Below, one piece after another: positions 3,001 through 19,202 of a stretch of DNA of 32,000 bases. The notes beneath the pieces are model-generated. The model ran no database searches and was not told the DNA's origin. It saw only the letters and a program-made list of their open reading frames with translations. This DNA is from an uncultured Thiomicrospira sp. Its GTDB lineage: Bacteria; Pseudomonadota; Gammaproteobacteria; CAKMZV01. Made by a program: the position numbers and the translations under genes. The stretch is from the NCBI GenBank assembly GCA_965195345.1, contig OZ239628.1, positions 803,339 through 835,338 of the forward strand, read 5' to 3'. Numbering within the stretch: the first letter of the stretch is position 1; each line of letters starts with the position of its first letter.

Positions 3001-5233
3001 TGCAGATGGGACTATATTACCTATTTCAGTGGTGCAGAGCAGCTCTAACCTACTTACATTCAGCACTATAACTGGGCGCATTACCCTTTCATCTATTGCG
3101 AATGCTAATGGAGTAACAACCCTTACCGTGAGTGCGGCTAATCAAAGTGGGCTAACGAACACGACAGAAGTAGCCATTACCATTAATTCCGTTAATGATA
3201 CTCCCACGCTCAGTTTATCAAGTACAAACTTAACCTTGGCATCTAATAGCACTGGTTTGATAACTGCCTTTGTCACGGATGTGGAAACAAGCAGTGCCTC
3301 ATTGATCTTTTCGGTACAACAAAATCCACCTTTGTTGCAGGTGAGTACACAAGGCAATGTCATCGTACTGAGATCGAGTGCTACTGCAGGCTCGACCACT
3401 TTAGTGATCACCGTTACTGATGGCGATGGTTCAAGCGCTTCAGCAACTGCTCGAGTTACTGTTCTATCAGGTGCTTTGAATATTGCTTTAAATGTTAAGC
3501 GCATTGATTTTTCTTGGAACACACTTCCTACAGCAAATCATTACCGCATGCTTAGCAATGTTGATTTGAATGCTGGTGGTGGTTTTGTTGATGCCAGTAG
3601 CGCAGGTTTGGTGTTTGTACCGAATAGCACGAATATTATCAATACCACAGTTTCTGCAACAGTGGATGTAGCACGCTATCTTTCTACGGCTAATGGACCA
3701 CAGTACCTGCTAGAAGCTTGTACCAGTGTGGATAATTCAGCCTGTTCTATTCATGCGCAACAAACCCTGAGCAATATTCAGTTACAGGGATTAATTGGTT
3801 ATTTTAAAGCCTCTTTTGCAGATGAGGGTGTGTTTGGTAGAGCTGTAGCAATAAGCGGTGATGGCAACACATTAGTTGTCGGTGCACCCGGAGAAAATAG
3901 CGACGCCACCGGCATCAATGGTGATCAGACGAACAATAACGCATCTGCCTCTGGTGCAGCCTATGTTTTTGTACGCAACAGTGCAGGCACATGGAGTCAA
4001 CAAGCCTATGTCAAAGCTTCTAATACAGGAGTTTTGGATCAATTTGGCACAGCTGTAGCAATAAATGATGACGGTAACACCATAGTTGTCGGTGCACTTG
4101 GGGAGGACAGTACCGCCACGGGTATCAACGGTGATCAATTAGATAATTCTGCAAGTGACTCTGGTGCAGCCTATGTTTTTGTGCGTAGTAGTACAGGTAC
4201 ATGGAGTCAACAGGCTTACATCAAGGCTTCTAATGCAGAAGCTCTTGATGATTTTGGCAGAACTGTATCGGTCACTGCTGATGGTAATACACTCGCTATT
4301 GGTGCGCCTTTAGAAGACAGTACTGCTACAGGCATTAACGGCGACGAAACAAACAATGGAGCAAGTGGCTCTGGTGCAGCCTATGTTTTTGTGCGTAGTA
4401 CTACGGGCACATGGAGTCAACAAGCTTATATCAAAGCTTCTAATGCAGAAGCTCTTGATGATTTTGGTTTTGCTGTATCGGTGAGCGATGATGGTAATAC
4501 TTTAGTTATTGGGGCATCTTTTGAAGACAGCACCGCCACGGGCATTAACGGCGATCAAACAACTAATAGTGCAAGTGCTTCTGGTGCAGCTTATGTTTTT
4601 GTGCGCAGTGCTACCGACACATGGACGCAAGAAGCCTACATCAAAGCCTCAAACACAGGTGTTAATGATCAATTTGGTTTAGCTACTTCAATTAGTGGTG
4701 ATGGTAACACACTGCTCATCAGCTCAATTGGAGAAGACAGCAATGCCACGGGTATCAACGGTGATCAAACAAACAATGCCGCAAATGGTGCTGGTGCAGC
4801 CTATGTTTTTGTGCGTAGTAGTACAGGCACATGGAGTCAACAAGCCTACATCAAGGCCTCCAATACAGGAGATCAGGATGAATTTGGTAGCGCTCTCTCA
4901 ATTAACAATGATGGTAGTATATTTGCTATCGGTGCTCCTTTTGAAGATAGTGATGTTAGTGGCATCAACGGTGATCAAATAAACAATGATGCATTTCGCG
5001 CTGGTGCAGCCTATGTTTTTGTGCGTAGTAGTACAGGCACATGGAGTCAACGAAGTTACATCAAAGCATCAAACACAGGAGTTTTAGATCGATTTGGTTC
5101 AGCTCTCTCAATAAGCGGTGATGGTAAGACACTCTCTATCGGTGCACCTTTCGAAGATAGCGATGCCACCGGCATTAATGGTGATCAGACGAATAACAAT
5201 GAGTCTGAGGCTGGTGCAGTGTATTTATATTAG
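2..5233 (+). CDS. Paralog 1 (5'-truncated by window edge): giant adhesin-like protein with cadherin-like/tandem-95-type Ig units, a C-type-lectin-like insert, an FN3-like neck and a 7-blade FG-GAP beta-propeller
   Basis: The ORF track gives 44..5233. The same frame is open back to nt 2, and nt 2-43 read TISVEVNPVNDRPVL, the tail of another Ig unit, so the real start lies upstream of the window. At least 11 Ig-like units with (N/D)DxP linkers. CTLD-like insert at 1520-2077, neck at 3488-3799, seven FG...GAP blades at 3800-5230. Ends GAVYLY, TAG at 5231-5233. Confidence 0.92.
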   Translation, partial: TISVEVNPVNDRPVLMLSLTSLSLNEDFGTFIINTTATDAEDGTLSVSVSGQAGLVTTTITTGQITLTSIAHANGRTTLTVSANDSENLFVTDEVVVIINAVNDNPVLTLSTTNLSLNEDFGTFIINTTATDIEDGVLPFTVSGQDASIFTVTTSTNQIMLTSVANANGIVTLTVSANDSENLSATTEVVVVVNAINDTPTLTFSTTQFNLNANFTPQTIATATDVDDISLLLTFALSATDVVQITTVANQFILNPIINAFGDTTITLAVSDDDGARSSSQIFTVRVNTPIASTTPTLALSTQNITLDEDFGTFIINTTATDAEDGTLSVTVSGQADLLTTNATTGQITLTSIANANGTTTLTVRATDSGNLSVTTEVVVTINAINDTPTLTLATTNITIVENATARQTISITDVADIEGSTLTFSVIASTSVFSSNPTSVVSFSDTRMITFSRQSTTAQLYYTLLPDTTGTGFIQIALTDGIDTQVTTVTVTVTEVRTSPQITQDFRTHRFFDARATRVGAVGGVLFAARGAFTGLLASTSTDGTGSAMNQLNFARSLGGSLAELYTEETYNALLGSVLVANGATTAGFDDDRFWLGLTSVPSFFGVTLPNQLDSEARYFWLSGQRVSQGLGGGTRIDVPGVYIGWGPSAPGTQGCADLILGAEVSAAFRPWASDQCFGGVFDALKALMQFPNGLPTTSSMIVQARSPITLIRLSGYDLDGSDNTLSWQVTDASGGGIATSTVYSSTGAQTLEISYTPVSGFSGTATLVVSLDDGDSATQNSTARVLVVNNTPTLTLSTNVVSLDEDFTSFVINTTATDAEGIIDFSVSTGNGIVLVTTSANAITLQSLANISGAVTLTVVADSGLLANTQTISVVVNPVNDTPTLSLSVTQRALAQNFGTFVINTTATDVESGPLGFSVSTGNGIVNVTTSVNTITLQSLANVIGDVTLTVSVSDGLLTATQSIFITVSRPFTFEVSTNTIVLDEDFNTFIINTTATAADGTILPISVVQSSSNLLTFSTITGRITLSSIANANGVTTLTVSAANQSGLTNTTEVAITINSVNDTPTLSLSSTNLTLASNSTGLITAFVTDVETSSASLIFSVQQNPPLLQVSTQGNVIVLRSSATAGSTTLVITVTDGDGSSASATARVTVLSGALNIALNVKRIDFSWNTLPTANHYRMLSNVDLNAGGGFVDASSAGLVFVPNSTNIINTTVSATVDVARYLSTANGPQYLLEACTSVDNSACSIHAQQTLSNIQLQGLIGYFKASFADEGVFGRAVAISGDGNTLVVGAPGENSDATGINGDQTNNNASASGAAYVFVRNSAGTWSQQAYVKASNTGVLDQFGTAVAINDDGNTIVVGALGEDSTATGINGDQLDNSASDSGAAYVFVRSSTGTWSQQAYIKASNAEALDDFGRTVSVTADGNTLAIGAPLEDSTATGINGDETNNGASGSGAAYVFVRSTTGTWSQQAYIKASNAEALDDFGFAVSVSDDGNTLVIGASFEDSTATGINGDQTTNSASASGAAYVFVRSATDTWTQEAYIKASNTGVNDQFGLATSISGDGNTLLISSIGEDSNATGINGDQTNNAANGAGAAYVFVRSSTGTWSQQAYIKASNTGDQDEFGSALSINNDGSIFAIGAPFEDSDVSGINGDQINNDAFRAGAAYVFVRSSTGTWSQRSYIKASNTGVLDRFGSALSISGDGKTLSIGAPFEDSDATGINGDQTNNNESEAGAVYLY
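599..886 (+). repeat. C-type Ig unit (TFSTTQF(N/S)LNANF...DVDD.SLLLTFALSATDVVQITTVAN), copy in paralog 1
   Basis: PTLTFSTTQFNLNANFTPQTIATATDVDDISLLLTFALSATDVVQITTVANQFILNPIINAFGDTTITLAVSDDDGARSSSQIFTVRVN. The same unit occurs twice in paralog 2. Confidence 0.85.
1520..2077 (+). other. C-type-lectin-like domain (CTLD) inserted in the paralog 1 stalk
   Basis: Motif order matches the CTLD fold: LGGSLAELYTEETYNAL (compare GGHLASIxSxEExxF), RFWLGLT (WIGLTD), YFWLSGQRVS (WxWSDG), YIGWG.SAP....C (YxNWxxGEPNxxxxxDC), then RPWASDQC (GxWNDxxC). There are only two Cys, in the positions expected for the C2-C3 disulfide. No canonical EPN/QPD + WND Ca/sugar triad. Confidence 0.55.
3488..5230 (+). other. 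Paralog 1 C-terminal head: FN3-like neck (3488-3799) plus seven FG-GAP blades (3800-5230)
   Basis: The neck reads LNVKRIDFSWNTLPTANHYRML...YLLEACTSVDNSACS, a Y-x-x-x-AC...C-S pattern typical of bacterial FN3-like domains. It is followed by 7 repeats of about 61 aa: FGxxVxxSxDGNTxxVGAPxEDSxATGINGDQ...SGAAYVFVRxxxGTWSQQAYIKASN. Each literally contains an FG...GAP motif and a DGN loop, as in integrin-alpha FG-GAP repeats. Confidence 0.75.
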
Positions 5234-5483: not shown

Positions 5484-8400
5484 ATGGGATATATACAGCG
5501 CTGGGCATTTCTGTTGTTGCTTGTTTTTCTGTCAGCTTGTGGTGGTGGTGATGGCGACACAATACCTCCGTCTACTAACACAACACCAACTTTAAGTCTC
5601 TCTGTCAATGCCGTAACGCTTGATGAAGATTTTGGTACCTTTATCATCAACACCACTGCCACCGACGTAGAAGATGGGACGCTGTCAGTGACCGTGTCTG
5701 GACAGGCTGGCTTGCTAACCACTAATGCTACTACTGATCAAATTACGCTCACTTCCATTGCCAATGCTAACGGAACAACTACACTCACTGTAAGTGCTAC
5801 CGATAGTGGCGCTCTTACAGTCTCCACCGAAGTGGTTGTTATTGTCAATGCCGCCAATGATACGCCCACACTTACCTTTTCAACCACTCAATTTAGTCTA
5901 AATGCAAATTTCATGCCTCAGACAATAGCAACAGCAACAGACGTTGATGATGCTTCCTTGCTCCTAACCTTTGCACTATCTGCAACCGATGTAGTACAAA
6001 TAACGACAGTTGCTAATCGGTTTATATTAAATCCTATCACTAATGCTTTTGGCGAGACAACCATCACTCTAACAGCAACTGATAGCAGCGGCAATCAGTC
6101 ATCTCAACGTTTTACAGTGCATGTTAACGCATCCATTGCATCGACAACACCTACATTAGCCTTATCAACGCAACGTATCACTTTAGATGAAGATTTTGGC
6201 ACTTTCGTCATCAACACCACTGCAAGTGATGCAGAAGATGGCGTGCTTCCCGTTGCAGTGACTGGACAAGACGCCAGTCTATTCGCCGTAACCACTTCTA
6301 CCGATCAGATAATACTTACCTCCGTTGCTAATGCCACCGGCATAGCCACGCTTACAGTAAGCATTGTTGATAGCGGAAATCTCTCCGCTACCACCGAAGT
6401 GGTTGTTGTTGTCAATGGCATCAATGATAGTCCTACATTGACACTATCAACAACGAACCTCAGCCTCAGTGAAGATTTTGGCACTTTCGTCATCAACACC
6501 ACTGCAAGTGATGCAGAAGATGGCGTGCTTCCCGTTGCAGTGACTGGACAAGACGCCAGTCTATTCGCCGTAACCACTTCTACCGATCAGATAATACTTA
6601 CCTCCGTTGCTAATGCCACCGGCATAGCCACGCTTACAGTAAGCATTGTTGATAGTGGAAATCTCTCCGCTACCACCGAAGTGGTTGTTGTTGTCAATGG
6701 CATCAATGATAGTCCTACCTTGACACTATCAACAACGAACCTCAGCCTCAGTGAAGATTTTGGCACTTTCGTCATCAACACCACTGCAAGTGATGCAGAA
6801 AATGGCAGGCTTCCCGTTGCAGTGACTGGACAAGATGCCAGTCTATTCGCCGTAACCACTTCTACCGATCAGATAATACTTACCTCCGTTGCTAATGCCA
6901 ACGGAACAGCCACACTCACTGTAAGCATTGTTGATAGTGGAAATCTCTCCGCTACCACCGAAGTGGTTGTTGTTGTCAATGGCATCAATAGTGCACCTGC
7001 ATTGACGCTATCAACAACGAACCTCAGCCTCAGTGAAGATTTTGGCACTTTCGTCATCAACACCACTGCCACCGATGTAGAAGATGGCGTGCTTCCCGTT
7101 GCAGTGACTGGACAAGATGCCAGTTTATTCGCCGTAACCACTTCTACCGATCAGATAATACTTACCTCCGTTGCTAATGCCAACGGAACAGCCACACTCA
7201 CTGTAAGCATTGTTGATAGTGGAAATATCTCCGCTACCACCGAAGTGGTTGTTGTTGTCAATGCCATCAATGATAGTCCTACATTGACACTATCAACAAC
7301 GAACCTCAGCCTCAGTGAAGATTTTGGCACTTTCGTCATCAACACCACAGCAAGTGATGCAGAAGATGGCGTGCTTCCCGTTGCAGTGACTGGACAAGAT
7401 GCCAGTCTATTCGCCGTAACCACTTCTACCGATCAGATAATACTTACCTCCGTTGCCAATGCCAACGGAACAGCCACGCTTACAGTAAGCATTGTTGGTA
7501 GCGGAAATCTCTCCGCTACCACCGAAGTGGTTGTTGTTGTCAATGCCATCAATGATAGTCCTACATTGACACTATCAACAACGAACCTCAGCCTCAGTGA
7601 AGATTTTGGCACTTTCATCATCAACACCACTGCCACCGATGCAGAAGATGGCGTGCTTCCCGTTGCAGTGACTGGACAAGATGCCAGTTTATTCGCCGTA
7701 ACCACTTCTACCGATCAGATAATACTTACCTCCGTTGCTAATGCCAACGGCATAGCCACACTTACAGTAAGCATTGTTGATAGTGGAAATCTCTCCGCTA
7801 CCACCGAAGTGGTTGTTGTTGTCAATGCCATCAATGATAGTCCTACATTGACACTATCAACAACGAACCTCAGCCTTAGTGAAGATTTTGGCACTTTCGT
7901 CATCAACACCACTGCAAGTGATGCAGAAGATGGCGTGCTTCCCGTTGCAGTGACTGGACAAGATGCCAGTCTATTCGCCGTAACCACTTCTACCGATCAG
8001 ATAATACTTACCTCCGTTGCCAATGCCAACGGAACAGCCACGCTTACAGTAAGCATTGTTGGTAGCGGAAATCTCTCCGCTACCACCGAAGTGGTTGTTG
8101 TTGTCAATGCCATCAATGATAGTCCTACATTGACACTATCAACAACGAACCTCAGCCTCAGTGAAGATTTTGGCACTTTCATCATCAACACCACTGCCAC
8201 CGATGCAGAAGATGGCGTGCTTCCCGTTGCAGTGACTGGACAAGATGCCAGTTTATTCGCCGTAACCACTTCTACCGATCAGATAATACTTACCTCCGTT
8301 GCTAATGCCAACGGCATAGCCACACTTACAGTAAGCATTGTTGATAGTGGAAATCTCTCCGCTACCACCGAAGTGGTTGTTGTTGTCAATGCCATCAATG

Positions 8401-11400
8401 ATAGTCCTACATTGACACTATCAACAACGAATCTCAGTCTCAGTGAAGATTTTGGCACTTTCGTCATCAACACCACTGCCACCGATGTAGAAGATGGCGT
8501 GCTTCCTGTTGCAGTGACTGGACAAGATGCCAGTCTATTCGCCGTAACCACTTCTACCGATCAGATAATACTTACCTCCGTTGCCAATGCCAACGGAACA
8601 GCCACACTCACTGTAAGCATTGTTGATAGTGGAAATCTCTCCGCTTCCACCGAAGTGGTTGTTGTTGTCAATGCCATCAATGATAGTCCTACATTGACAC
8701 TATCAACAACGAACCTCAGCCTCAGTGAAGATTTTGGCACTTTCGTTATCAACACCACAGCAAGTGATGCAGAAGATGGCGTGCTTCCCGTTGCAGTGAC
8801 TGGACAAGATGCCAGTTTATTCGCCGTAAGCACTTCTACCGATCAGATAATACTTACCTCCGTTGCCAATGCCAACGGAACAGCCACACTTACTGTAAGC
8901 ATTGTTGATAGCGGAAATCTCTCCGCTTCCACCGAAGTGATTGTTATTGTCAATGGCATCAATAGTTCACCTGCATTGACGCTATCAACAACGAACCTCA
9001 GTCTCAGTGAAGATTTTGGCACTTTCGTCATCAACACCACAGCAAGTGATGCAGAAGATGGCGTGCTTCCCGTTGCAGTGACTGGACAAGATGCCAGTCT
9101 ATTCGCCGTAACCACTTCTGCCAACCAGATAATACTCACCTCCGTAGCTAATGCCAATGGCAGAGCTACGCTTACAGTAAGCATTGTTGATAGTGGAAAT
9201 CTCTCCGCTTCCACCGAAGTGGTGGTGCTTGTCAACGCCGTCAATGACACGCCCACACTTACCTTTTCAACCACTCAATTTAGTCTAAATGCAAACTTTA
9301 CCCCGCAAACAATAGCAACAGCAACAGACGTTGATGATGCTTCCTTGCTCCTAACCTTTGCACTATCTGCAACCGATGTAGTACAAATAACGACTGTTGC
9401 TAATCGGTTTATATTAAATCCTATCACTAATGCTTTTGGCGAGACAACCATCACTCTAACAGCAACTGATAACAGCGGTAATCAGTCATCTCAAATTTTC
9501 ACAGTGCGCGTTAACGGATTCCCTACATTAGCCTTATCAACGCAGCGTGTCACTTTAGATGAAGACTTTGGTACTTTCGTCATCAATACCACTGCAAGTG
9601 ATGCAGAAGATGGCGTGCTTCCCGTTGCAGTGACTGGACAAGATGCCAGTCTATTCGCCGTAACCACTTCTACCAATCAGATAATGCTTACTTCCATTGC
9701 TAATGCCAACGGCATAGCCACACTCACTGTAAGCATTGTTGATAGTGGAAATCTCTCCGCTACCACCGAAGTTGTTGTTGTTGTCAATGCCATCAATGAT
9801 AATCCTACATTGACGCTATCAACAACGAACCTCAGCCTCAGTGAAGATTTTGGCACTTTCGTCATCAACACCACTGCAAGTGATGCAGAAGATGGCGTGC
9901 TTCCCGTTGGAGTGACTGGGCAAGATGCCAGTCTATTCGCCGTAACCACTTCTACCGATCAGATAATACTTACCTCCGTTGCTAATGCCAACGGCATAGC
10001 TACGCTTACAGTAAGCATTGTTGATAGTGGAAATCTCTCCGCTACCACCGAAGTGGTTGTTGTTGTCAATGCCATCAATGATAGTCCTACATTGACACTA
10101 TCAACAACGAACCTCAGTCTCAGTGAAGATTTTGGCACTTTCGTCATCAACACCACAGCAAGTGATGCAGAAGATGGCGTGCTTCCCATTGCAGTGACTG
10201 GACAAGATGCCAGTCTATTCGCCGTAACCACTACTACCAATCAGATAATACTTACCTCCGTTGCTAATGCCAACGGCAGAGCTACGCTTACAGTAAGCAT
10301 TGTTGATAGTGGAAATCTCTCCGCTACCACCGAAGTGGTTGTTGTTGTCAATGCCATCAATGATAGTCCTACATTGACACTATCAACAACGAACCTCAGT
10401 CTTAGTGAAGATTTTGGCACTTTCGTCATCAACACCACTGCAAGTGATGCAGAAGATGGCGTGCTTCCCGTTGCAGTGACTGGACAAGATGCCAGTCTAT
10501 TCGCCGTAACCACTTCTACCGATCAGATAATACTTACCTCCGTTGCCAATGCCAACGGAACAGCCACGCTTACAGTAAGCATTGTTGATAGCGGAAATCT
10601 CTCCGCTACCACCGAAGTGGTTGTTGTTATCAATGCCATCAATGATAGTCCCACATTGACACTATCAACAACGAACCTCAGCCTTAGTGAAGATTTTGGC
10701 ACTTTCGTCATCAACACCACTGCAAGTGATGCAGAAGATGGCCTGCTTCCCGTTGCAGTGACTGGACAAGATGCCAGTCTATTCGCCGTAACCACTTCTG
10801 CCGATCAGATAATACTTACCTCCGTTGCCAATGCCAACGGAACAGCCACGCTTACAGTAAGCATTGTTGGTAGCGGAAATCTCTCCGCTACCACCGAAGT
10901 GGTTGTTGTTGTCAATGCCATCAATGATAGTCCTACATTGACACTATCAACAACGAACCTCAGCCTCAGTGAAGATTTTGGCACTTTCATCATCAACACC
11001 ACTGCCACCGATGCAGAAGATGGCGTGCTTCCCGTTGCAGTGACTGGACAAGATGCCAGTCTATTCGCCGTAACCACTTCTACCAATCAGATAATACTTA
11101 CCTCCGTTGCTAATGCCACCGGCATAGCCACGCTTACAGTAAGCATTGTTGATAGCGGAAATCTCTCCGCTACCACCGAAGTGGTTGTTGTTGTCAATGC
11201 CGTTAATGACACTCCAACGCTCAGTTTATCAAGTACAAACCTAACTTTGACAGCTAATACCACCGCTTTAATCACTGCCTTTGGCGTAGATGTGGAAACA
11301 AGCAGTGCTTCATTGATCTTTTCTGTACAACAAAACCCATCTTTGTTGCAGGTGAGTACACAAGGCAATGTTATCGTACTAAGAGCGGGTGCTACTACAG

Positions 11401-13250
11401 GCTCTACCACTTTAGTGATCACCGTTACTGATGGTGATGGCTTAAGCACTTCAGCAACCGCTCAAGTTACTGTTGTATCAGGTGTTTTGAATGTTTTGAA
11501 TGTAAATTTAAATGTTAAGCGCATTAACTTTTCTTGGAACACACTTCCTGCAGCAAATCATTACCGCATGCTTAGCAATGTTGATGTGAATGCTGGTGGT
11601 GGTTTTGTTGATGCCAGTAGCGCAGGTTTGGTGTTTGTACCGAATAGTACGAATATTATCAATACTACAGTCTCTGCAACAGTGGATATAGCACGCTATC
11701 TTTCTACGGCTGATGGACCACAGTATCTGCTACAAGCTTGTAGTAGTGTTGACAATTCCGTTTGTTCTGATCTTGCGCAAGAATCTCTGAGTAATATTCA
11801 GTTAGAGGGATTGATTGGTTATTTCAAGGCTTCTAATACAGATGCAGATGATGAATTTGGTGAGGGTGTCGCAATAAGCGGTGATGGCAACACATTAGTT
11901 GTCGGTGCACCATTTGAGGACAGCACCGCCACTAGTATCAACGGCGATCAAACAAACAATAGTGCGGGTGATTCTGGTGCAGCCTATGTTTTCGTGCGCA
12001 GTAGTACGGGCAGCTGGCGTCAACAAGCATACCTTAAAGCCTCTGATGCACAAGCTAATGATCAGTTTGGTGCAGTTGTAACAATAAGCAATGACGGTAA
12101 TACTATAGTTGTTGGTGCAGAATTTAAGGATGTTGGCGCTCCTGGCGGTGTCCCCCAAGGCGACGCTGGTGCAGCCTATGTTTTCGTGCGCAGTAGTACC
12201 GGCAGCTGGCGTCAACAAGCTTTCATCAGCGCTTCTAATCTAAATGCCAATGATCGGTTTGGAAGAACTGTATCGGTTGCTGCTGATGGTAATACACTCG
12301 CTATCGGTGCACCTTTAAAAAGTGTACCTGGCACAAATCCTTTCACGGGTCAACCTGCGAGTATAGCTAATGTTGGTACAGCCTATGTTTTTGTACGCAG
12401 TAGTACGGGTACATGGAGTGAGCAAGCTTTATTGACACCACCTGCTGTAACACTTAATGCTAATTTTGGTAATGCTGTATCGATGAGTGGTGATGGTAAT
12501 ACCATGGTCGTTGGTGCAGTTGGTGACCAAAGTACTGGCATGGGTATCGACAGTGATGAATTCACCACTTTTGTTTTTGGTTCTGGTGCAGCCCATGTTT
12601 TTGTACGCAGTAGTACGGGTACATGGAGTCGGCAAGCTTATATTAAAGCCTCAAATTCAGAAAGTGTTGATCTCTTTGGTACAGCTGTATCGATGAGCGG
12701 TGATGGTAATACCATGGTCGTTGGTGCACCACAAGAAGACAGCAATGCCACGGGTATCGACGGCGATCAAGCAAATAATGGTAGTGGTGCTGATGGTATT
12801 AATTCAAATTCTGGTGCAGCCTATGTTTTTGTGCGCAGTAGTACGGGCACATGGACGCAAGATGCCTATATCAAAGCCTCAAATACAGGACTTGGTGATG
12901 AGTTTGGTTTTGCTGTTTCAATGAGAAGTGATGGTAATGCGTTCGTTGTTGGTGCACCATTTGAGGACAGCAATGCCACGGGAATCAACGGGGGGCAAGC
13001 AGATGGTGCTAATAACGCTGGTGCAGCCTATCTGTTTGTGCGCAGCAGCGCAGGCACATGGAGTCAACAAGCCTACACCAAAGCCTCAAACACAGGAGCT
13101 GATGATGCGTTTGGTTCAGTTCTCTCAATAAGCAGTGATGGTACAACGTTTGCTGTTGGCGCACCCAATGAAAACAGCAGTGCCACTGGTATCAATGGTA
13201 ATCAAACAGACGATAGTCAAGATAACGCTGGTGCAGCGTATTTGTATTAG
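5484..13250 (+). CDS. Paralog 2: 2588-aa predicted lipoprotein adhesin with 21 Ig/cadherin-like units (17 near-identical), an FN3-like neck and a 7-blade FG-GAP propeller
   Basis: ATG at 5484 is preceded by AAGGTG (5471-5476, 7-nt spacer). The N-terminus MGYIQRWAFLLLLVFLSAC is a signal peptide with lipobox LSAC (Cys codon 5538-5540). Unit order: one A-type, C-type, 11 B-type, C-type, 6 B-type, one terminal. Neck 11508-11819, blades 11820-13247. Ends GAAYLY, TAG. Confidence 0.95.
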   Translation: MGYIQRWAFLLLLVFLSACGGGDGDTIPPSTNTTPTLSLSVNAVTLDEDFGTFIINTTATDVEDGTLSVTVSGQAGLLTTNATTDQITLTSIANANGTTTLTVSATDSGALTVSTEVVVIVNAANDTPTLTFSTTQFSLNANFMPQTIATATDVDDASLLLTFALSATDVVQITTVANRFILNPITNAFGETTITLTATDSSGNQSSQRFTVHVNASIASTTPTLALSTQRITLDEDFGTFVINTTASDAEDGVLPVAVTGQDASLFAVTTSTDQIILTSVANATGIATLTVSIVDSGNLSATTEVVVVVNGINDSPTLTLSTTNLSLSEDFGTFVINTTASDAEDGVLPVAVTGQDASLFAVTTSTDQIILTSVANATGIATLTVSIVDSGNLSATTEVVVVVNGINDSPTLTLSTTNLSLSEDFGTFVINTTASDAENGRLPVAVTGQDASLFAVTTSTDQIILTSVANANGTATLTVSIVDSGNLSATTEVVVVVNGINSAPALTLSTTNLSLSEDFGTFVINTTATDVEDGVLPVAVTGQDASLFAVTTSTDQIILTSVANANGTATLTVSIVDSGNISATTEVVVVVNAINDSPTLTLSTTNLSLSEDFGTFVINTTASDAEDGVLPVAVTGQDASLFAVTTSTDQIILTSVANANGTATLTVSIVGSGNLSATTEVVVVVNAINDSPTLTLSTTNLSLSEDFGTFIINTTATDAEDGVLPVAVTGQDASLFAVTTSTDQIILTSVANANGIATLTVSIVDSGNLSATTEVVVVVNAINDSPTLTLSTTNLSLSEDFGTFVINTTASDAEDGVLPVAVTGQDASLFAVTTSTDQIILTSVANANGTATLTVSIVGSGNLSATTEVVVVVNAINDSPTLTLSTTNLSLSEDFGTFIINTTATDAEDGVLPVAVTGQDASLFAVTTSTDQIILTSVANANGIATLTVSIVDSGNLSATTEVVVVVNAINDSPTLTLSTTNLSLSEDFGTFVINTTATDVEDGVLPVAVTGQDASLFAVTTSTDQIILTSVANANGTATLTVSIVDSGNLSASTEVVVVVNAINDSPTLTLSTTNLSLSEDFGTFVINTTASDAEDGVLPVAVTGQDASLFAVSTSTDQIILTSVANANGTATLTVSIVDSGNLSASTEVIVIVNGINSSPALTLSTTNLSLSEDFGTFVINTTASDAEDGVLPVAVTGQDASLFAVTTSANQIILTSVANANGRATLTVSIVDSGNLSASTEVVVLVNAVNDTPTLTFSTTQFSLNANFTPQTIATATDVDDASLLLTFALSATDVVQITTVANRFILNPITNAFGETTITLTATDNSGNQSSQIFTVRVNGFPTLALSTQRVTLDEDFGTFVINTTASDAEDGVLPVAVTGQDASLFAVTTSTNQIMLTSIANANGIATLTVSIVDSGNLSATTEVVVVVNAINDNPTLTLSTTNLSLSEDFGTFVINTTASDAEDGVLPVGVTGQDASLFAVTTSTDQIILTSVANANGIATLTVSIVDSGNLSATTEVVVVVNAINDSPTLTLSTTNLSLSEDFGTFVINTTASDAEDGVLPIAVTGQDASLFAVTTTTNQIILTSVANANGRATLTVSIVDSGNLSATTEVVVVVNAINDSPTLTLSTTNLSLSEDFGTFVINTTASDAEDGVLPVAVTGQDASLFAVTTSTDQIILTSVANANGTATLTVSIVDSGNLSATTEVVVVINAINDSPTLTLSTTNLSLSEDFGTFVINTTASDAEDGLLPVAVTGQDASLFAVTTSADQIILTSVANANGTATLTVSIVGSGNLSATTEVVVVVNAINDSPTLTLSTTNLSLSEDFGTFIINTTATDAEDGVLPVAVTGQDASLFAVTTSTNQIILTSVANATGIATLTVSIVDSGNLSATTEVVVVVNAVNDTPTLSLSSTNLTLTANTTALITAFGVDVETSSASLIFSVQQNPSLLQVSTQGNVIVLRAGATTGSTTLVITVTDGDGLSTSATAQVTVVSGVLNVLNVNLNVKRINFSWNTLPAANHYRMLSNVDVNAGGGFVDASSAGLVFVPNSTNIINTTVSATVDIARYLSTADGPQYLLQACSSVDNSVCSDLAQESLSNIQLEGLIGYFKASNTDADDEFGEGVAISGDGNTLVVGAPFEDSTATSINGDQTNNSAGDSGAAYVFVRSSTGSWRQQAYLKASDAQANDQFGAVVTISNDGNTIVVGAEFKDVGAPGGVPQGDAGAAYVFVRSSTGSWRQQAFISASNLNANDRFGRTVSVAADGNTLAIGAPLKSVPGTNPFTGQPASIANVGTAYVFVRSSTGTWSEQALLTPPAVTLNANFGNAVSMSGDGNTMVVGAVGDQSTGMGIDSDEFTTFVFGSGAAHVFVRSSTGTWSRQAYIKASNSESVDLFGTAVSMSGDGNTMVVGAPQEDSNATGIDGDQANNGSGADGINSNSGAAYVFVRSSTGTWTQDAYIKASNTGLGDEFGFAVSMRSDGNAFVVGAPFEDSNATGINGGQADGANNAGAAYLFVRSSAGTWSQQAYTKASNTGADDAFGSVLSISSDGTTFAVGAPNENSSATGINGNQTDDSQDNAGAAYLY
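5865..6149 (+). repeat. C-type Ig unit, first copy in paralog 2 (precedes the 11-unit B array)
   Basis: Near-identical to 9252-9521. Differences seen: M/T, S/N, R/I, H/R, plus an ASIASTT extension at the junction. Confidence 0.9.
6150..9251 (+). repeat. In-frame tandem array: 11 x 282 bp (94 aa) near-identical B-type cadherin-like units in paralog 2
   Basis: The unit-initial CCT/CCC (Pro of PTLTLS) recurs at 6150, 6432 and onward, with the next unit type starting at 9252, an exact 282-nt period. The antisense shadow ORFs in the track also recur every 282 nt (6305, 6587, 6869 ... 8843). Unit consensus: PTLTLSTTNLSLSEDFGTFVINTTASDAEDGVLPVAVTGQDASLFAVTTSTDQIILTSVANANGTATLTVSIVDSGNLSATTEVVVVVNAINDS. 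Confidence 0.95.
9252..9521 (+). repeat. C-type Ig unit, second copy in paralog 2 (precedes the 6-unit B array)
   Basis: Dispersed duplicate of 5865-6149, so paralog 2 is organised as [C unit + B array] twice. Confidence 0.9.
9522..11213 (+). repeat. In-frame tandem array: 6 x 282 bp further B-type units in paralog 2
   Basis: Begins at CCT 9522 (FPTLALSTQRVTLDEDFG) and ends before CCA 11214, where the terminal Ig unit begins. 6 x 282 = 1692 nt exactly. Confidence 0.95.
11508..13247 (+). other. Paralog 2 C-terminal head: FN3-like neck (11508-11819) plus seven FG-GAP blades (11820-13247)
   Basis: Same motifs as paralog 1. Seven FG..DGN cores: FGEGVAISGDGNT, FGAVVTISNDGNT, FGRTVSVAADGNT, FGNAVSMSGDGNT, FGTAVSMSGDGNT, FGFAVSMRSDGNA, FGSVLSISSDGTT. 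Blades 2-4 carry non-canonical loops. Confidence 0.75.
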
Positions 13251-13514: not shown

Positions 13515-15986
13515 ATGTTAAAGAATTCAGAGAAAAAAATATATCACGTAAGTTGGGGGTCTCTACTACTTTTTGTCTTTTTATCTGCCTGTGGTGGTGG
13601 CGGTGGCGGTGGCGGTGATACAGCACCTCCGATTATTGCGAGCACAACACCAAATTTAAGTGTATCGACCAATGCCATAACACTCAATGAAGATTTTGGC
13701 ACTTTTATCATCAACACCACTGCTACCGATGCAGAAGATGGAACGTTGTCAGTAACCGTATCTGGACAGGCAGGCTTGATAACCACTGATATCACCACTG
13801 ATAGAATTACCTTAAATTCTGTTGCCAATGCTAATGGCGTAACTACACTTACTGTACGTGCTACCGATAGCGGAAATCTCTCCGCTTCCACCGAAGTAGT
13901 TGTCACCATCAACGCCGTCAATGATGCTCCAACGTTAAGTTTATCAACTACAAACTTAATCTTATTACCCAATAGTACTGGTAGGATAACTGCCGTTTTT
14001 TCGGATGTGGAAACAAGTAGTAACGCATTGAATTTTGCGTTCCCAGTAAATACAGCTTTGGTGCAGGCGAGTAGGGAAGGCAATGATGTCATCGTGCTGA
14101 TATCGAGTGTTGTTGCAGGCTCAACTACTTTTGTTGTTACCGTCACTGATCAAGGTAACTTAAGCGCTTCAGCAACAGCTCGAGTTACTGTTCTCTCTAA
14201 TGCTTTGGATGTCGCGTTAAATGTTAAACGCATTGATTTTTCTTGGGGCAACTTCCCTGAAGCAAATCATTACCGCATGCTCAGTAATGTCGATTTAAAC
14301 GCTGGTGGTGGTTTTATTGATGCTAGTAGTGCAAACTTGGTATTTTTGCCAAATAGTACAAATATTATCAATACTACAGTCTCTGCAATAGTGGATGTAG
14401 CACGCTATCTTCCTGCGGTTAATGATCCGCAGTATCTGCTACAAGCTTGTACCAGTGTGGATGATTCCGTTTGTTCTAATCTTGCGGAAGGAACTCTGAC
14501 CAATGCTCAGTTAGAAGGATTGATTGGTTATTTCAAAGCTTCTAATACGGGAATGGGAGATATATTTGGTGATGCTGTAGCAATAAGTGGTGATGGTAAT
14601 ACGCTTGCAGTCGGTGCTGCTTTTGAGGACAGCGACGCCAGGGGCATCAACGGGGATCAATCAGACAATGATGCAGGTAACGCTGGTGCAGTGTATGTTT
14701 TTGTACGCAACAGTGCAGGAACATGGACACAACAAGCATACATTAAAGCCTCGAACTCACAAGGAAATGATCAATTCGCTGCCAGTGTAGACCTAAGCAA
14801 TGATGGTAATACCTTATTGGTTGGTGCACGTTTTGAAGGGAGTGGCGCTACTGGTATTAACGGTGATCAATCCAACAATAATCTTGACCAATCTGGTGCA
14901 GGCTATATTTTTGTACGCAACAGTGGAGGCACATGGAACCAGCAAGCTTACGTCAAAGCCTCTAATACGGGTCGGATTGATCAATTTGGTGCAGCTATAG
15001 CAATAAGCGGTGAAAGTGGTGCTACCGCATTTGTTGGTGCGCCAAATGAGGACAGTGGTGCGACTGGCATCAACGGTAATGAATCTGATAGTGTTGGTGC
15101 TGTAACTAACTCTGGTGCAGTCTATGCTTTTGTGCGTGATAGCATTGGTGCGTGGAGTCAACAAGCCTATATCAAAGCATCTAATACAGGAGCTGAAGAT
15201 GATTTTGGTGAAGTTTTATCAGCGAGTAGAAATGGCAATACCGTCATCGTTGGTGCGCCAAATGAGGACAGCGTTGCCACGGGCATCAACGGGGATCAAT
15301 TAGACAATTCTACAGCTAACTCTGGTGCAGCCTATGTTTTCGTGCGTAGTAGTACGGATACATGGAGTCAACAAGCCTATATCAAAGCCTCTAATACAGG
15401 ATTTACTGATCGGTTTGGTGGAGCTGTATCGATAAGTGGTGATGGTAATACCATAGTCGTTGGTTCATCTTTTGAAGACAGCAACTCTACCGGTGTTAAT
15501 GGGGTTCAAACGAATAATGGCGCAAGCAACTCTGGTGCAGCCTATGTTTTTGTGCGCAGTAGTACGGGCAGATGGAGTCAACAAGCCTACCTAAAAGCCT
15601 CCAATACAGATACAAATGATCAATTTGGTATAGCTTTAGCAATAAGCGGTGATGGTAACTCCATCATTGTTGGTGCAGTTGGGGAAGGAAGCGATGCCAC
15701 AGGTATTAACGGTGTTCAAAGCAATGATCTCTCAAATAGGGGACCTCGTGGTGCAGCCTATCTCTTTGTGCGTAGTGGTACGACATGGAGTCAACAAGCC
15801 TACATCAAATCCTCGAATACAGGTATTTTGGATGAGTTTGGTAACTCTGTTTCAATAAGTAATGATGGTAAAACGTTTGCTGTTGGTGCACCCACTGAAG
15901 ATAGCACTGCCACCGGCATTAATGGCGATCAATCAAATAATGGTACTGGTATTGGTTCAAATGCTGGTGCAGTGTATTTGTATTAG
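13515..15986 (+). CDS. Paralog 3: 823-aa predicted lipoprotein, the shortest stalk (2 Ig-like units), with an FN3-like neck and a 7-blade FG-GAP propeller
   Basis: ATG at 13515 follows GTGAGGA (13504-13510). The N-terminus MLKNSEKKIYHVSWGSLLLFVFLSAC carries lipobox LSAC (Cys codon 13590-13592), followed by Gly x8. Neck 14217-14528, blades 14529-15983. Ends GAVYLY, TAG. Confidence 0.95.
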   Translation: MLKNSEKKIYHVSWGSLLLFVFLSACGGGGGGGGDTAPPIIASTTPNLSVSTNAITLNEDFGTFIINTTATDAEDGTLSVTVSGQAGLITTDITTDRITLNSVANANGVTTLTVRATDSGNLSASTEVVVTINAVNDAPTLSLSTTNLILLPNSTGRITAVFSDVETSSNALNFAFPVNTALVQASREGNDVIVLISSVVAGSTTFVVTVTDQGNLSASATARVTVLSNALDVALNVKRIDFSWGNFPEANHYRMLSNVDLNAGGGFIDASSANLVFLPNSTNIINTTVSAIVDVARYLPAVNDPQYLLQACTSVDDSVCSNLAEGTLTNAQLEGLIGYFKASNTGMGDIFGDAVAISGDGNTLAVGAAFEDSDARGINGDQSDNDAGNAGAVYVFVRNSAGTWTQQAYIKASNSQGNDQFAASVDLSNDGNTLLVGARFEGSGATGINGDQSNNNLDQSGAGYIFVRNSGGTWNQQAYVKASNTGRIDQFGAAIAISGESGATAFVGAPNEDSGATGINGNESDSVGAVTNSGAVYAFVRDSIGAWSQQAYIKASNTGAEDDFGEVLSASRNGNTVIVGAPNEDSVATGINGDQLDNSTANSGAAYVFVRSSTDTWSQQAYIKASNTGFTDRFGGAVSISGDGNTIVVGSSFEDSNSTGVNGVQTNNGASNSGAAYVFVRSSTGRWSQQAYLKASNTDTNDQFGIALAISGDGNSIIVGAVGEGSDATGINGVQSNDLSNRGPRGAAYLFVRSGTTWSQQAYIKSSNTGILDEFGNSVSISNDGKTFAVGAPTEDSTATGINGDQSNNGTGIGSNAGAVYLY
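13593..13616 (+). repeat. (GGY)8 in-frame microsatellite encoding Gly8 directly after the lipobox Cys of paralog 3
   Basis: ggt ggt ggc ggt ggc ggt ggc ggt, then gat. Confidence 0.9.
14217..15983 (+). other. Paralog 3 C-terminal head: FN3-like neck (14217-14528) plus seven FG-GAP blades (14529-15983)
   Basis: KRIDFSWGNFPEANHYRML neck. Seven blade cores: FGDAVAISGDGNT, FAASVDLSNDGNT, FGAAIAISGESGAT, FGEVLSASRNGNT, FGGAVSISGDGNT, FGIALAISGDGNS, FGNSVSISNDGKT. Confidence 0.75.
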
Positions 15987-16235: not shown

Positions 16236-19202
16236 ATGAAAATGAAACATTTAAAGTGCTGGGGGTTTCTATTGTCACTTGTTTTTCTATCTGCCTGCGG
16301 TGGCGGCGGCGGTGGCGGTGGCGGTGATACAGCACCTCCGATTATTGCGAGCACAACACCAAATTTAAGTGTATCGACCAATGCCGTAACACTCAATGAA
16401 GATTTTGGCACTTTTATCATCAACACCACTGCTACCGATGTAGAAGATGGAACGTTGTCAGTAACCGTATCTGGACAGGCTGGTTTGCTAACCACTGATA
16501 TTACCACTGGTCGAATTACCCTAACTTCTGTTGCCAATGCTAACGGCGTAACTACACTTACTGTACGTGCTACCGATAGCGGAAATCTCTCTGCTACCAC
16601 CGAAGTGGTTGTCACCATCAATGATGCTCCAACATTGACACTATCAACAACGAACCTCAGCCTCAGTGAAGATTTTGGCACTTTTGTCATCAACACCACA
16701 GCAAGTGATGCAGAAGATGGCGTGCTTCCCGTTGCAGTGACTGGACAAGATGCCAGTCTATTCGCCGTAACCACTTCTACCGATCAGATAATACTTACCT
16801 CCGTTGCTAATGCTAACGGCATAGCTACGCTTACAGTAAGCATTGTTGATAGTGGAAATCTCTCCGCTACCACCGAAGTGGTTGTTGTTGTCAATGCCAG
16901 TCCTACATTGACACTATCAACAACGAACCTCAGCCTCAATGAAGATTTTGGCACTTTTATCATCAACACCACTGCTACCGATGTAGAAGATGGAACGTTG
17001 TCAGTAACCGTATCTGGACAGGCTGGTTTGCTAACCACTGATATTACCACTGGTCGAATTACCCTAACTTCTGTTGCCAATGCTAACGGCGTAACCACAC
17101 TTACTGTACGTGCTACCGATAGCGGAAATCTCTCTGCTACCACCGAAGTGGTTGTCACCATCAATGATGCTCCAACGTTAAGTTTATCAACTACAAACTT
17201 AATCTTATTACCCAATAGTACTGGTAGGATAACTGCCGTTTTTGCGGATGTGGAAACAAGTAGTAACTTATTGACTTTTGTGATACAAGAAAATACAGCT
17301 TTGGTGCGGGTGAGTAGGCAAGGCAATGATGTCATCGTGCTGAGATCGAACACTGCGGCAGGCTCAACTACTTTAGTTGTTACCGTCACTGATGAAGGTG
17401 GGGCAAGCGCCTCAGAAACAGTTCGAGTTACTGTTCTCTCTAATGTTTTGAATGTCGCGTTAAATGTTAAACGCATTGATTTTTCTTGGGGCAACTTCCC
17501 TGAAGCAAATCATTACCGCATGCTCAGTAATGTCGATTTAACCGCTGGTGGTGGCTTTGTTGATGCTAGTAGTGCAAACTTGGTATTTTTGCCAAATAGT
17601 ACAAATATTATCAATACTACAGTCTCTGCAATAGTGGATGTAGCACGCTATCTTTCTGCGGTTAATGGACCAGAGTATCTGCTGCAAGCTTGTACCAGTG
17701 TGGACAACTCAGTTTGTTCTAATCTTGCGCAACAAACTCTGACCAATGCTCAGTTAGAAGGATTGATTGGTTACTTCAAAGCTTCTAATACAGGTGCTGA
17801 TGATAGGTTTGGTAGGGCTGTAGCAATAAGTGGTGATGGTAATACGCTTGCAGTCGGTGCTGCTTTTGAGGACAGCGACGCCAGGGGTATTAACGGCGGA
17901 ACAAATGATGCCCTCGCCGACTCTGGTGCAGTGTATGTTTTTGTACGCAACAGTGCAGGAACATGGGCACAACAAGCATACATTAAAGCCTCGAACTCAG
18001 GAGGAGATGATCAATTCGGTGCCAGTGTAGACCTAAGTAATGATGGTAATACCTTATTGGTTGGTGCACGTTTTGAGGACAGCGATGCGACTGGCATTAA
18101 CGGTGATGAAACAAACAATGATTCAAGAGCCTCTGGTGCAGCCTATATTTTTGTACGCAACAGTGGAGGCACATGGAGCCAACAAGCTTACGCCAAAGCC
18201 TCTAATACAGGATCTGATGATGACTTTGGTGAGGCTGTAGCAATAAGTGGTGATGGTAATACGCTAATTGTTGGTGCATCTGGTGAGGACAGCACCGCCA
18301 CGGGCATCAACGGGGATCAATTAGACAATTCTACAGCTAACTCTGGTGCAGCCTATGTTTTTGTGCGTAGTAGTACTGGTACATGGAGTCAACAAGTCTA
18401 CCTTAAAGCATCTAATGCAGAAGCCGGTGATAATTTTGGTAGAGCTTTATCGGCGAGCAGTAATGGCAATACCGTCATCGTTGCTGCGCCAAGTGAGGAC
18501 AGCGCTGCCACTGGCATCAATGGGAATCAATTAAATAATTCTACAGCTAACTCTGGTGCGGTCTATGTTTTCGTGCGTAGTAGTACTGGTACATGGAGTC
18601 AACAAGCCTATGTTAAAGCCTCTAATACAGGAACTAATGATGATTTTGGTTTTGCCTTGTCACTGAGCGATGATGGTAATACCATGGTCGTTGGTGCGCC
18701 TGCTGAAGACAGCAATTCTACCGGTGTTAATGGGGTTCAAACGAATAATGGCGTAAGTAACTCTGGTGCAGTCTATGTTTTTGTACGTAGTAGTACGGGC
18801 AGCTGGCGTCAACAAGCATATCTAAAAGCCTCCAATACAGATAATGACGATCTATTTGGTCATGCTGTAGCAATAAGCGGTGATGGTAATTCCATCATTG
18901 TTGGTGCAGTAGCTGAAGAAAGCGATGCCACAGGTATTAACGGCGATCAAACAAGCAATGCTACACGTTTTTCTGGTGCAGCCTATCTTTTTGTGCGTAG
19001 TGGTACGACATGGAGTCAACAAGCCTACATCAAAACAACGAACCCAGGCTTTTTTGATGAGTTTGGTGACGCTGTTTCAATAAGTAATGATGGTAAAACG
19101 TTTGCTGTTGGCGCACGCAATGAAGAAAGCAGTGCCACTGGTATCAATGGTGATCAAACAAACAATAGTCAAGATAACGCTGGTGCAGTGTATTTGTATT
19201 AA
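16236..19202 (+). CDS. Paralog 4: 988-aa predicted lipoprotein with 4 Ig-like units (A-B-A plus terminal), an FN3-like neck and a 7-blade FG-GAP propeller
   Basis: ATG at 16236; a second in-frame ATG at 16242 is an equally possible start. MKMKHLKCWGFLLSLVFLSAC carries lipobox LSAC (Cys codon 16296-16298), followed by Gly x9. Neck 17460-17771, blades 17772-19199. Ends GAVYLY, TAA. The head is most similar to that of paralog 3. Confidence 0.95.
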   Translation: MKMKHLKCWGFLLSLVFLSACGGGGGGGGGDTAPPIIASTTPNLSVSTNAVTLNEDFGTFIINTTATDVEDGTLSVTVSGQAGLLTTDITTGRITLTSVANANGVTTLTVRATDSGNLSATTEVVVTINDAPTLTLSTTNLSLSEDFGTFVINTTASDAEDGVLPVAVTGQDASLFAVTTSTDQIILTSVANANGIATLTVSIVDSGNLSATTEVVVVVNASPTLTLSTTNLSLNEDFGTFIINTTATDVEDGTLSVTVSGQAGLLTTDITTGRITLTSVANANGVTTLTVRATDSGNLSATTEVVVTINDAPTLSLSTTNLILLPNSTGRITAVFADVETSSNLLTFVIQENTALVRVSRQGNDVIVLRSNTAAGSTTLVVTVTDEGGASASETVRVTVLSNVLNVALNVKRIDFSWGNFPEANHYRMLSNVDLTAGGGFVDASSANLVFLPNSTNIINTTVSAIVDVARYLSAVNGPEYLLQACTSVDNSVCSNLAQQTLTNAQLEGLIGYFKASNTGADDRFGRAVAISGDGNTLAVGAAFEDSDARGINGGTNDALADSGAVYVFVRNSAGTWAQQAYIKASNSGGDDQFGASVDLSNDGNTLLVGARFEDSDATGINGDETNNDSRASGAAYIFVRNSGGTWSQQAYAKASNTGSDDDFGEAVAISGDGNTLIVGASGEDSTATGINGDQLDNSTANSGAAYVFVRSSTGTWSQQVYLKASNAEAGDNFGRALSASSNGNTVIVAAPSEDSAATGINGNQLNNSTANSGAVYVFVRSSTGTWSQQAYVKASNTGTNDDFGFALSLSDDGNTMVVGAPAEDSNSTGVNGVQTNNGVSNSGAVYVFVRSSTGSWRQQAYLKASNTDNDDLFGHAVAISGDGNSIIVGAVAEESDATGINGDQTSNATRFSGAAYLFVRSGTTWSQQAYIKTTNPGFFDEFGDAVSISNDGKTFAVGARNEESSATGINGDQTNNSQDNAGAVYLY
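16299..16325 (+). repeat. (GGY)9 in-frame microsatellite encoding Gly9 directly after the lipobox Cys of paralog 4
   Basis: ggt ggc ggc ggc ggt ggc ggt ggc ggt, then gat. Confidence 0.9.
16359..17171 (+). repeat. A-B-A unit block in paralog 4: A1 16359-16628, gene-2-type B unit 16629-16901, A2 16902-17171
   Basis: A1 (about 16395-16628) and A2 (about 16938-17171) lie 543 nt apart. By eye they differ at one base (ggcgtaacT vs ggcgtaacC) over about 237 nt. The unit between them reads like the paralog 2 B consensus (DGVLPVAVTGQDASLFAVTTSTDQIILTSVANANGIATLTVSIVDSGNLSATTEVVVVVN). Confidence 0.9.
17460..19199 (+). other. Paralog 4 C-terminal head: FN3-like neck (17460-17771) plus seven FG-GAP blades (17772-19199)
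   Basis: Same motifs. Seven cores: FGRAVAISGDGNT, FGASVDLSNDGNT, FGEAVAISGDGNT, FGRALSASSNGNT, FGFALSLSDDGNT, FGHAVAISGDGNS, FGDAVSISNDGKT. Confidence 0.75.

Follow-up and report, generated by a model that had tools for sequence, protein, structure and literature searches.

Propeller heads of a tandem lipoprotein array in an uncultured Thiomicrospira sp. combine a conserved blade framework with loops that vary at one blade end

The stretch of DNA analyzed here (the window) comprises 32,000 nt from an uncultured Thiomicrospira sp. (GenBank assembly GCA_965195345.1, contig OZ239628.1, positions 803,339 to 835,338 of the forward strand); positions given below are those of the window unless stated otherwise. 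The list of open reading frames and their translations revealed seven tandem genes of lipoprotein type, all on the + strand, and each of them ends with a C-terminal FG-GAP_2 propeller. These are p1 (2–5233, open at its 5′ end), p2 (5484–13250), p3 (13515–15986), p4 (16236–19202), p5 (19450–23922), p6 (24171–28634) and p7 (28795–31998), the last of which is open at its 3′ end, as the end of the window cuts a gene that is complete in the genome. We show that the propeller blades share a nearly invariant framework and that their variable positions are confined to loops at one end of the blade, which by strand topology form one face of the propeller. The gene products have a common layout, consisting of a signal peptide, a variable number of ~94-aa immunoglobulin (Ig)/cadherin-like units, a conserved neck and the propeller. 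For p2 (2588 aa) the reading frame, its translation and Pfam matches gave a lipobox signal peptide, ~21 Ig/cadherin-like stalk units, the neck and the propeller. A lipobox of the LSAC/LTAC type, as read from the sequence, is placed at approximately residues 16–27 of p2–p7; it is followed by a Gly run in p2–p6 and by a single Gly and then Asp in p7. The stalk units correspond to Pfam Big_9 (p4, p5, p7), with weak matches to Cadherin_4. The stalk of p3 (13710–13940, residues 66–141) also gave a sub-threshold match to the NCBIfam tandem-95 repeat NF012211 (tand_rpt_95; 28 bits, cut-off 90).

The window genes are members 8–14 of a 14-gene, 75-kb tandem array (genome positions 760,672–835,648), which takes up ~4% of the 1.9-Mb genome (one contig of 1.92 Mb, 99.7% complete) and encodes lipoproteins with stalks of very different length. 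Outside the array lie two close copies (1,229,300–1,236,556) as well as two divergent ones, located at 1.62 and 1.83 Mb. In each of two congeneric genomes >100 matches were obtained, with frames of up to 12,231 aa, and no matches to the lipoprotein family were found in the two family-level relatives searched. The most divergent array member is p7 (genome positions 832,109–835,648), the product of which lacks ~18 residues of the loop between strands 2 and 3 (2-3 loop) of blade 7 and ends with ...NNAGEVYLY. Our literature search found no paper on this array.

Pfam FG-GAP_2 (PF14312) matched the C-terminal domains with 108.6–205.7 bits (curated cut-off 23) and E values of 1.7e-31 to 7.8e-62, the lowest being that of the C-terminal part of p2. 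Every complete gene tested had seven FG-GAP_2 stretches, and the truncated p7 had four. Counted by their G-A-A-Y-V-F anchors, 47 blades lie in the window: seven in each of six complete propellers and five in p7. The p1 propeller (3791–5230) is fully canonical, with seven 70-aa blades. It is followed by those of p2 (11811–13247), p3 (14520–15983), p4 (17763–19199), p5 (22483–23919), p6 (27204–28631) and p7 (30910–31998), the last with five blades and the start of a sixth before the window ends. Within a propeller the median identity between blades is 0.66 for p1, 0.63 for p4 and 0.51–0.58 for p2, p3, p5, p6 and p7. Each protein stops right behind strand 3 of its final blade, with ...GA(A/V)YLY, and a strand-4-like LIGYFKAS stands before blade 1.

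To model the p2 head, 14 paralogs and distant homologues were aligned as input for AlphaFold2. The predicted structure (predicted local distance difference test, pLDDT, 87; predicted template-modelling score, pTM, 0.89) is a closed propeller of seven blades with four strands each, in which the N-terminal strand E28–30 (GYF of LIGYFKAS, assigned by DSSP) completes blade 7. When the model was compared with the PDB by Foldseek, ranks 1–25 were all integrin alpha chains (E 2.8e-16 to 1e-11, TM score 0.53–0.59, 14–16% identity), including alpha4, alphaV, alpha5, alpha6, alphaX and alphaM, of which alpha4, alphaV and alpha5 matched best (E 1e-15 to 1e-16). A sequence search of the PDB gave no match at E ≤ 0.01. 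The prediction and its structural matches thus support the assignment of the head domain as an integrin-alpha-like seven-bladed propeller.

The 47 blades were aligned and column entropy was averaged by structural class. Strand 3 (0.55 bits), the 3-4 turn (0.83) and the 1-2 turn (0.92) gave the lowest means, followed by strand 4 (1.05), strand 2 (1.12), the proximal part of the 2-3 loop (EDSxATGINGDQ, 1.26) and strand 1 (1.38), while the highest values belonged to the 4-1 loop (2.20), the distal 2-3 loop (2.46) and the two residues after VGA (2.52). Every one of the 13 columns with an entropy (H) of at least 2.3 falls in the 4-1 loop, the 2-3 loop or the residue directly after FG (hypergeometric p 2.5e-6), those of the 2-3 loop being in its distal half, and the top loops (2-3 and 4-1) have higher entropy than the bottom ones (Mann-Whitney p 7e-4). 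The F of FG, the G of DGNT and the G of GAAY are kept in 47/47 blades each, and the W and the F of AYVF in 40/40 each. FG as such is present in 44/47 blades, GA in 44–45/47 and a P after GA in 26/47. A preliminary description of this DNA, made from the sequence alone, had reported framework strands nearly invariant over about 47 blades, and both the number of anchors and the key residues agree with it. It had also described the loop between VGAP and GAAYVF as highly variable and as the place where variation is concentrated. This is true of the distal half of the 2-3 loop, whereas the proximal half is a conserved motif, and the 4-1 loop and the residue after FG, which had not been mentioned, are equally variable.

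Length follows the same pattern. The 2-3 loop varies from 11 to 28 aa, as expected from the length-variable inserts noted earlier, with a mode of 22 aa in 28/47 blades; its first 12 residues (EDSxATGINGDQ) are conserved and hypervariability is limited to the last 8–14. The remaining loops are of fixed length except for a few one-residue changes (3-4 turn, 5–7 aa) and for a single 4-1 loop with an insert of 11 aa. Insertions and deletions, all in frame, occur in the 2-3 and 4-1 loops only. Two congeneric homologues have the same architecture, with indels again in these two loops. In the FG-GAP_2 family at large, 50,472 cluster representatives match at E ≤ 0.001, and for 12,978 the match reaches E ≤ 1e-30. 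A blade profile built from the window recovered 939 near-full-length blades in the 150 best representatives, with an almost identical consensus and with entropies of 0.86 for strand 3, 3.6 for the residues after VGA, 2.6 for the distal loop and 2.5 for the 4-1 loop. As the profile recurs in 939 blades of unrelated bacteria, it is a trait of the family and is not special to this locus. It is also the pattern to be expected of a propeller that serves as a binding domain.

Because the blades have a four-stranded up-down topology, the 2-3 and 4-1 loops come at one end and the 1-2 and 3-4 turns at the other, and the variable positions therefore share one face of the propeller. The assignment of faces was made from strand topology and DSSP. 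It bears out the earlier suggestion that the variable loops lie on one face; in the entropy map combined with the topology, variable positions occur at the top end only and are not scattered over both faces. By topology the variable end of the blade is also the FG/GAP end. In integrins the 4-1 and 2-3 loops at this end make up the upper face, where the ligand and the beta subunit are contacted, and the residues determining specificity are in blades 2–4. The calcium loops of integrins have been placed at the end opposite FG/GAP (Chouhan et al. 2011, PMC3192720). The neck precedes strand 4, which runs from bottom to top, and the C-terminus follows strand 3, which runs from top to bottom, so that the stalk junction and the C-terminus are both on the bottom face. 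The variable face would thus point away from the stalk and be the cell-distal one. A search for the calcium motif Dx[DN]xDG in all seven propellers found none, the 1-2 turn being a five-residue G/N-D-G-N-T, and no match to PF01839 was obtained at E ≤ 0.01, FG-GAP_2 being the only family listed. The sole candidate for a metal or sugar site is EDSxATGINGDQxNN, a top-face segment rich in acidic and amide residues.

The largest departures from the canonical blade are found in p2, p5 and p6, which have one type of head (those of p5 and p6 are 83% and 81% identical to that of p2). In this type (12120–12590, 22790–23270 and 27480–27980) the EDSxATGING motif is gone from blades 2 and 3 and degenerate in blade 4, and a Pro-rich segment replaces the KASN 4-1 loop before blade 4; the changes make up one contiguous remodelled patch on blades 2–4, with hydrophobic and aromatic residues. 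No other gene with a head of this type was found across the genome. As the non-canonical loops of blades 2–4 have no donor elsewhere in the genome, they diverged in place. In p2 the 2-3 loop of blade 2 (12120–12167) is short and non-canonical (EFKDVGAPGGVPQGDA) and lacks the EDSxATGING motif, that of blade 3 (12318–12374) reads KSVPGTNPFTGQPASIANV, and that of blade 4 (12525–12584) is DQSTGMGIDSDEFTTFVFGS, in which the motif is degenerate and the variable tip behind it hydrophobic. Before blade 4 the non-canonical 4-1 loop LLTPPAVTLNAN (12429–12464) stands in place of IKASNTGxxDx. The 2-3 loop of p2 blade 5 (12729–12812) is, with 28 aa, the longest in the window, its p6 counterpart being 3 aa (9 nt) shorter. 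For the blade-3 loop of p2, AlphaFold2 predicts an extra beta-hairpin on the top face (DSSP strands E197–200 and E207–210, pLDDT 83–93).

The preliminary description had placed the blade-3 and blade-4 loops of p2, p5 and p6 correctly to within 1 nt. Its statement that the blade-3 loops differ in length holds as well, but they are not unrelated sequences. The p2 loop and that of p6 (KTVRTIDSMGQSVSRATA, 27714–27767) are homologous at the DNA level: 40 of ~55 aligned nucleotides are the same, with one 3-nt indel, while 1000 shuffles gave 27.5 ± 2.9 (maximum 36). In p5 the corresponding loop (KSVNALTSV, 23023–23049) is the p2/p6 loop minus 30 nt, in frame. A frameshift origin of the divergent blade-3 loops was rejected, as the DNA aligns in frame with only the 3-nt and 30-nt indels. 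A canonical peptide quoted in the same description, EDSTATGINGDQTNNSAGDS, has no exact occurrence; p2 blade 1 reads ...TATSING... instead. The 2-3 loop of blade 4 is 22 aa long (+2 aa) in p5 (23203–23268) and is located at 27921–27980 in p6. The 11-aa insert mentioned above is in the p5 4-1 loop before blade 2 (22729–22794) and is a 33-nt tandem duplication, the two copies of which are identical at 25/33 positions. It is the only long 4-1 insert in the window; one congeneric homologue has a 13-aa 4-1 insert in another blade.

Substitution rates were estimated from sister pairs of paralogs, as scans of genome and metagenome contigs for orthologues from other strains gave nothing above 50% identity, and the two congeners are only 45–46% identical over the whole head. 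By the NG86 method, omega (dN/dS, the ratio of nonsynonymous to synonymous rates) for the three pairs among p2, p5 and p6 was 3.1, 1.6 and 2.5 in the distal 2-3 loop and 2.6, 2.6 and 2.1 in the 4-1 loop, vs. 0.44–0.50 in strands and bottom turns. The corresponding values for p3/p4 were 0.66, 0.58 and 0.49, and in this pair synonymous divergence (dS) was far higher in the loops than in the framework. Across the seven sister pairs of the 15 alignable genome paralogs, omega of the variable class was 1.43, 1.08, 2.45, 1.31, 1.54, 0.72 and 1.03 and that of the framework 0.20–0.51. Loop dN/dS thus exceeds framework dN/dS 2- to 7-fold in six of the seven pairs, in line with the contrast expected for diversified loops; in the seventh, p3/p4, the two are about equal (0.58 vs. 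0.48 under the codon model described next).

A maximum-likelihood codon model (GY94-type, F3x4), in which p2/p5/p6 were fitted as a star tree, agreed with NG86. For this trio omega was 1.68 in the variable loops of all blades (likelihood-ratio statistic, LRT, 3.97 against omega = 1, p 0.046, uncorrected) and 2.28 in those of blades 2–5 (LRT 6.0, p 0.014, uncorrected), 1.41 in all top loops (p 0.10), 0.48 in strands and bottom turns (below 1, p 0.004) and 0.36 in bottom turns alone (p 0.059). In the other sister pairs the framework gave 0.16–0.48, always below 1. Overall, framework omega was 0.16–0.53, and most sister pairs had values of about 1 in their variable loops. These estimates at most suggest positive selection on the loops, and in the 2/5/6 group only.

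The locus is best explained, in our view, by a diversified binding surface: we consider it probable, with some reserve, that the genes encode surface lipoproteins in which a constant propeller scaffold carries a diversified cell-distal face for ligand recognition. The loops may, on the other hand, be neutral. Under such an account the unconstrained tips on the top face simply drift, the framework contrast reflects folding constraint only and the differences between paralogs have no function. Several observations speak for it and weigh against a binding surface. Variable-loop omega in the other sister pairs was 1.11, 1.25, 0.58 and 1.07, none of them different from 1, and for all top loops of the trio the departure from 1 was not significant. 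The significant values of the trio come from several uncorrected tests, under a model the single-history assumption of which is broken by recombination. The canonical variable tips are rich in N, D, S, T and G and, like many unconstrained linkers, have a low complexity, and the same profile in 939 blades of 150 unrelated proteins gives no support to the idea that this array is specially diversified. The border between the conserved and the variable part of the 2-3 loop was itself set from conservation, although it was reproduced in the independent family-wide data. The face occupied by the variable columns is deduced from topology, and surface exposure, binding and adaptive value are put forward here as proposals. 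At the same time, drift does not readily account for the variable-class omega of 1.68–2.28 in the trio or for the strong conservation (omega 0.36) of the bottom-face turns, the exposure of which should be no less. Nor would it be expected to keep the modal loop length of 22 aa in 28/47 blades or to produce the coherent blade 2–4 patch of the 2/5/6 head with its hydrophobic and aromatic residues. On balance we regard drift alone as rather unlikely.

The blades also bear clear traces of exchange. In many of them the DNA of the 2-3 loop is nearest to that of another paralog or another blade position (0.92–0.98 nucleotide identity), while the frameworks group differently; for example, the blade 1 loop of array gene 3 is close to the blade 4 loop of gene 6 (0.98), and the p5 blade 1 loop to the blade 2 loop of array gene 7 (0.94). 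In p2/p5/p6, which copy is the odd one out differs from blade to blade (chi-square 43.7, df 12, p 1.7e-5). Gene conversion thus passes loop cassettes from blade to blade and from one paralog to another. The framework is affected as well. Among identical residues of non-orthologous blades, codon identity was 0.75 in strand 3 and 0.61 in the 3-4 turn, vs. 0.41 and 0.31 expected from the codon usage of the family, whereas the excess was far smaller in the equally conserved EDSxATGING (0.56 vs. 0.46). The block of strand 3 and the 3-4 turn, GAAYVFVRSSTGTW, keeps its codons across non-orthologous blades of the window propellers. Given this excess of same-codon use, the block is also homogenized at the DNA level, and the pattern points to short-tract homogenization or to a recombination anchor. 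On a larger scale, p5 and p6 (19450–22480 vs. 24171–27200) are nearly identical over their first ~800 codons (dS 0–0.04); beyond codon 800, dS rises to 0.15–0.27, and windows of 100 codons in the head have a dN/dS above 1. This change marks a sharp boundary of homogenization near the neck.

A bolder version of the binding-surface account would have the strand 3/3-4 turn and EDSxATGING blocks act as homology anchors that shuffle ~60-nt loop cassettes among at least 110 blades of 16 expressed paralogs. The binding heads would then form a combinatorial repertoire in the germline, on which a host, prey or partner surface imposes diversifying selection. We think this doubtful; if it were true, the cassette repertoire would follow a logic like that of variable lymphocyte receptors or pilin cassettes, with every copy expressed.

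Gene conversion does contribute part of the contrast between loops and framework, and it can be asked whether it accounts for most of it, the constant scaffold being mainly a by-product of short conversion tracts that homogenize the framework among ~110 blades while the loops escape. Strand 3 indeed has a dS of 0.07–0.24, vs. up to 0.8–1.4 in other classes, framework dS is lower than loop dS in 5/7 pairs, and the codon-identity excess and the mosaic patterns described above fit such a process. Yet proteins of distant bacteria, which cannot undergo conversion with this array, have nearly the same framework consensus. Every pair has a framework omega significantly below 1, and conversion moves the loops too and does not spare them. 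We therefore hold this to be quite improbable as the main cause.

Programmed hypervariation, either by a diversity-generating retroelement or by silent-cassette antigenic variation into one expression site, would be in keeping with loop tips rich in AAY (Asn) codons and with cassettes common to several blades, but is scarcely credible: no reverse transcriptase (PF00078) was found in the 99.7%-complete 1.92-Mb genome by a search that was positive in three control genomes, substitutions show no adenine bias (A is involved in 55% in loops vs. 50% elsewhere), so that a retroelement was rejected, and no copy is a silent cassette, because each has its own start codon, lipobox and full-length frame. 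Public reads gave no usable sign of within-sample variation either. In the four public read runs that contain this stretch, the unitigs are 110–240 nt long (mostly ~130 nt) and cross-map between paralogous blades, and the variant letters largely mirror paralog differences (e.g., blade-2 variants equal to p5/p6); because of this cross-mapping, the reads hold no information on variation within the population.

Taken as a diversified binding surface on a constant scaffold, the locus may be envisaged as follows. Each protein would be lipid-anchored at its N-terminus and would raise, on an Ig/cadherin-like stalk of variable length and a neck, a C-terminal FG-GAP_2 head of integrin-alpha fold. Purifying selection keeps all four strands constant, as it does the turns GDGNT (1-2) and SSTGTW (3-4) and the proximal 2-3 loop (EDSxATGINGDQ), and concerted evolution at the DNA level additionally holds the strand 3/3-4 turn block. 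The fast positions would all lie opposite the stalk junction and the C-terminus; they comprise the 2-3 loop tip, the whole 4-1 loop and the residues that directly follow FG and VGA. Their change takes three routes: point substitutions at a neutral or higher rate (omega ~1, nominally ~2 in p2/p5/p6), small in-frame deletions and tandem duplications, and the transfer of cassettes among blades and paralogs by short tracts of gene conversion. The variable face would then serve ligand recognition, lectin-like or protein-binding, with a different surface in each paralog.

As an instance of a constant scaffold with variable loops, kept by selection and gene conversion, the array is clean but expected, and in this respect fairly ordinary. 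Its value may be in the material it offers. Sixteen heads on one scaffold, with their differences on one face, would amount to a natural experiment, and p2, p5 and p6 are three recent copies with differences concentrated on blades 2–5. The array thereby points to the loops that could be swapped or mutated in a search for ligands. If the heads are indeed exposed, a bacterium with a small genome devotes several percent of its DNA to varied surface heads.

To our knowledge, no FG-GAP_2 propeller has a known ligand, nor one a solved structure that sequence searches can detect. The best structural matches are integrin alpha propellers (4irz_A, alpha4; 8xek_A, alphaV; 9dia_A, alpha5; TM 0.55–0.59). 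The array heads share with them seven four-stranded blades, FG before strand 1, GA(P) after strand 2 and an N-terminal closure strand that serves as strand 4 of blade 7; in addition, the 2/5/6 head is remodelled in blades 2–4, the blades in which the integrin specificity residues are also found. Unlike integrin alpha chains, to which they are 14–16% identical, they have no calcium loop, no PF01839 match, no beta-subunit partner and no transmembrane segment, and their 2-3 loops are long, with the conserved EDSxATGINGDQ that integrins lack. Compared with the rest of PF14312, the domain is here the head of lipoproteins encoded in a 14-gene tandem array, with non-canonical blades 2–4 in p2, p5 and p6.

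With the bacterial integrin-type FG-GAP propellers described by Chouhan et al. (2011, PMC3192720) the array heads have in common the seven blades, the FG/GAP glycines and the closure strand. There, each of the seven blades bears a calcium-binding motif (Chouhan et al. 2011, PMC3192720), which is absent from all array blades; these match the FG-GAP_2 model instead. High internal blade identity is also a feature of the highly repetitive VCBS/FG-GAP propellers, including the tachylectin-2 lectins, members of a supercluster that typically recognizes carbohydrates and also mediates interactions between proteins (Pereira and Lupas 2021, PMC8023676; 2022, PMC9218822). Only p1 (0.66) and p4 (0.63) pass the >60% median threshold used there (2022, PMC9218822), the other five being just below it (0.51–0.58). 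In contrast to those propellers, the array heads have a fixed number of seven blades, and the uniformity of the array heads is kept family-wide and is not explained only by recent amplification. Finally, the array resembles tandem surface-protein families diversified by recombination, such as the Borrelia loci for host-interacting lipoproteins (PMC11389397), in its tandem paralogs and mosaic segments and in the combination of near-identical 5′ parts with tips that have diverged. Unlike such families, the array exchanges ~60-nt loop cassettes within a repeat scaffold, across blade positions as well as between genes.

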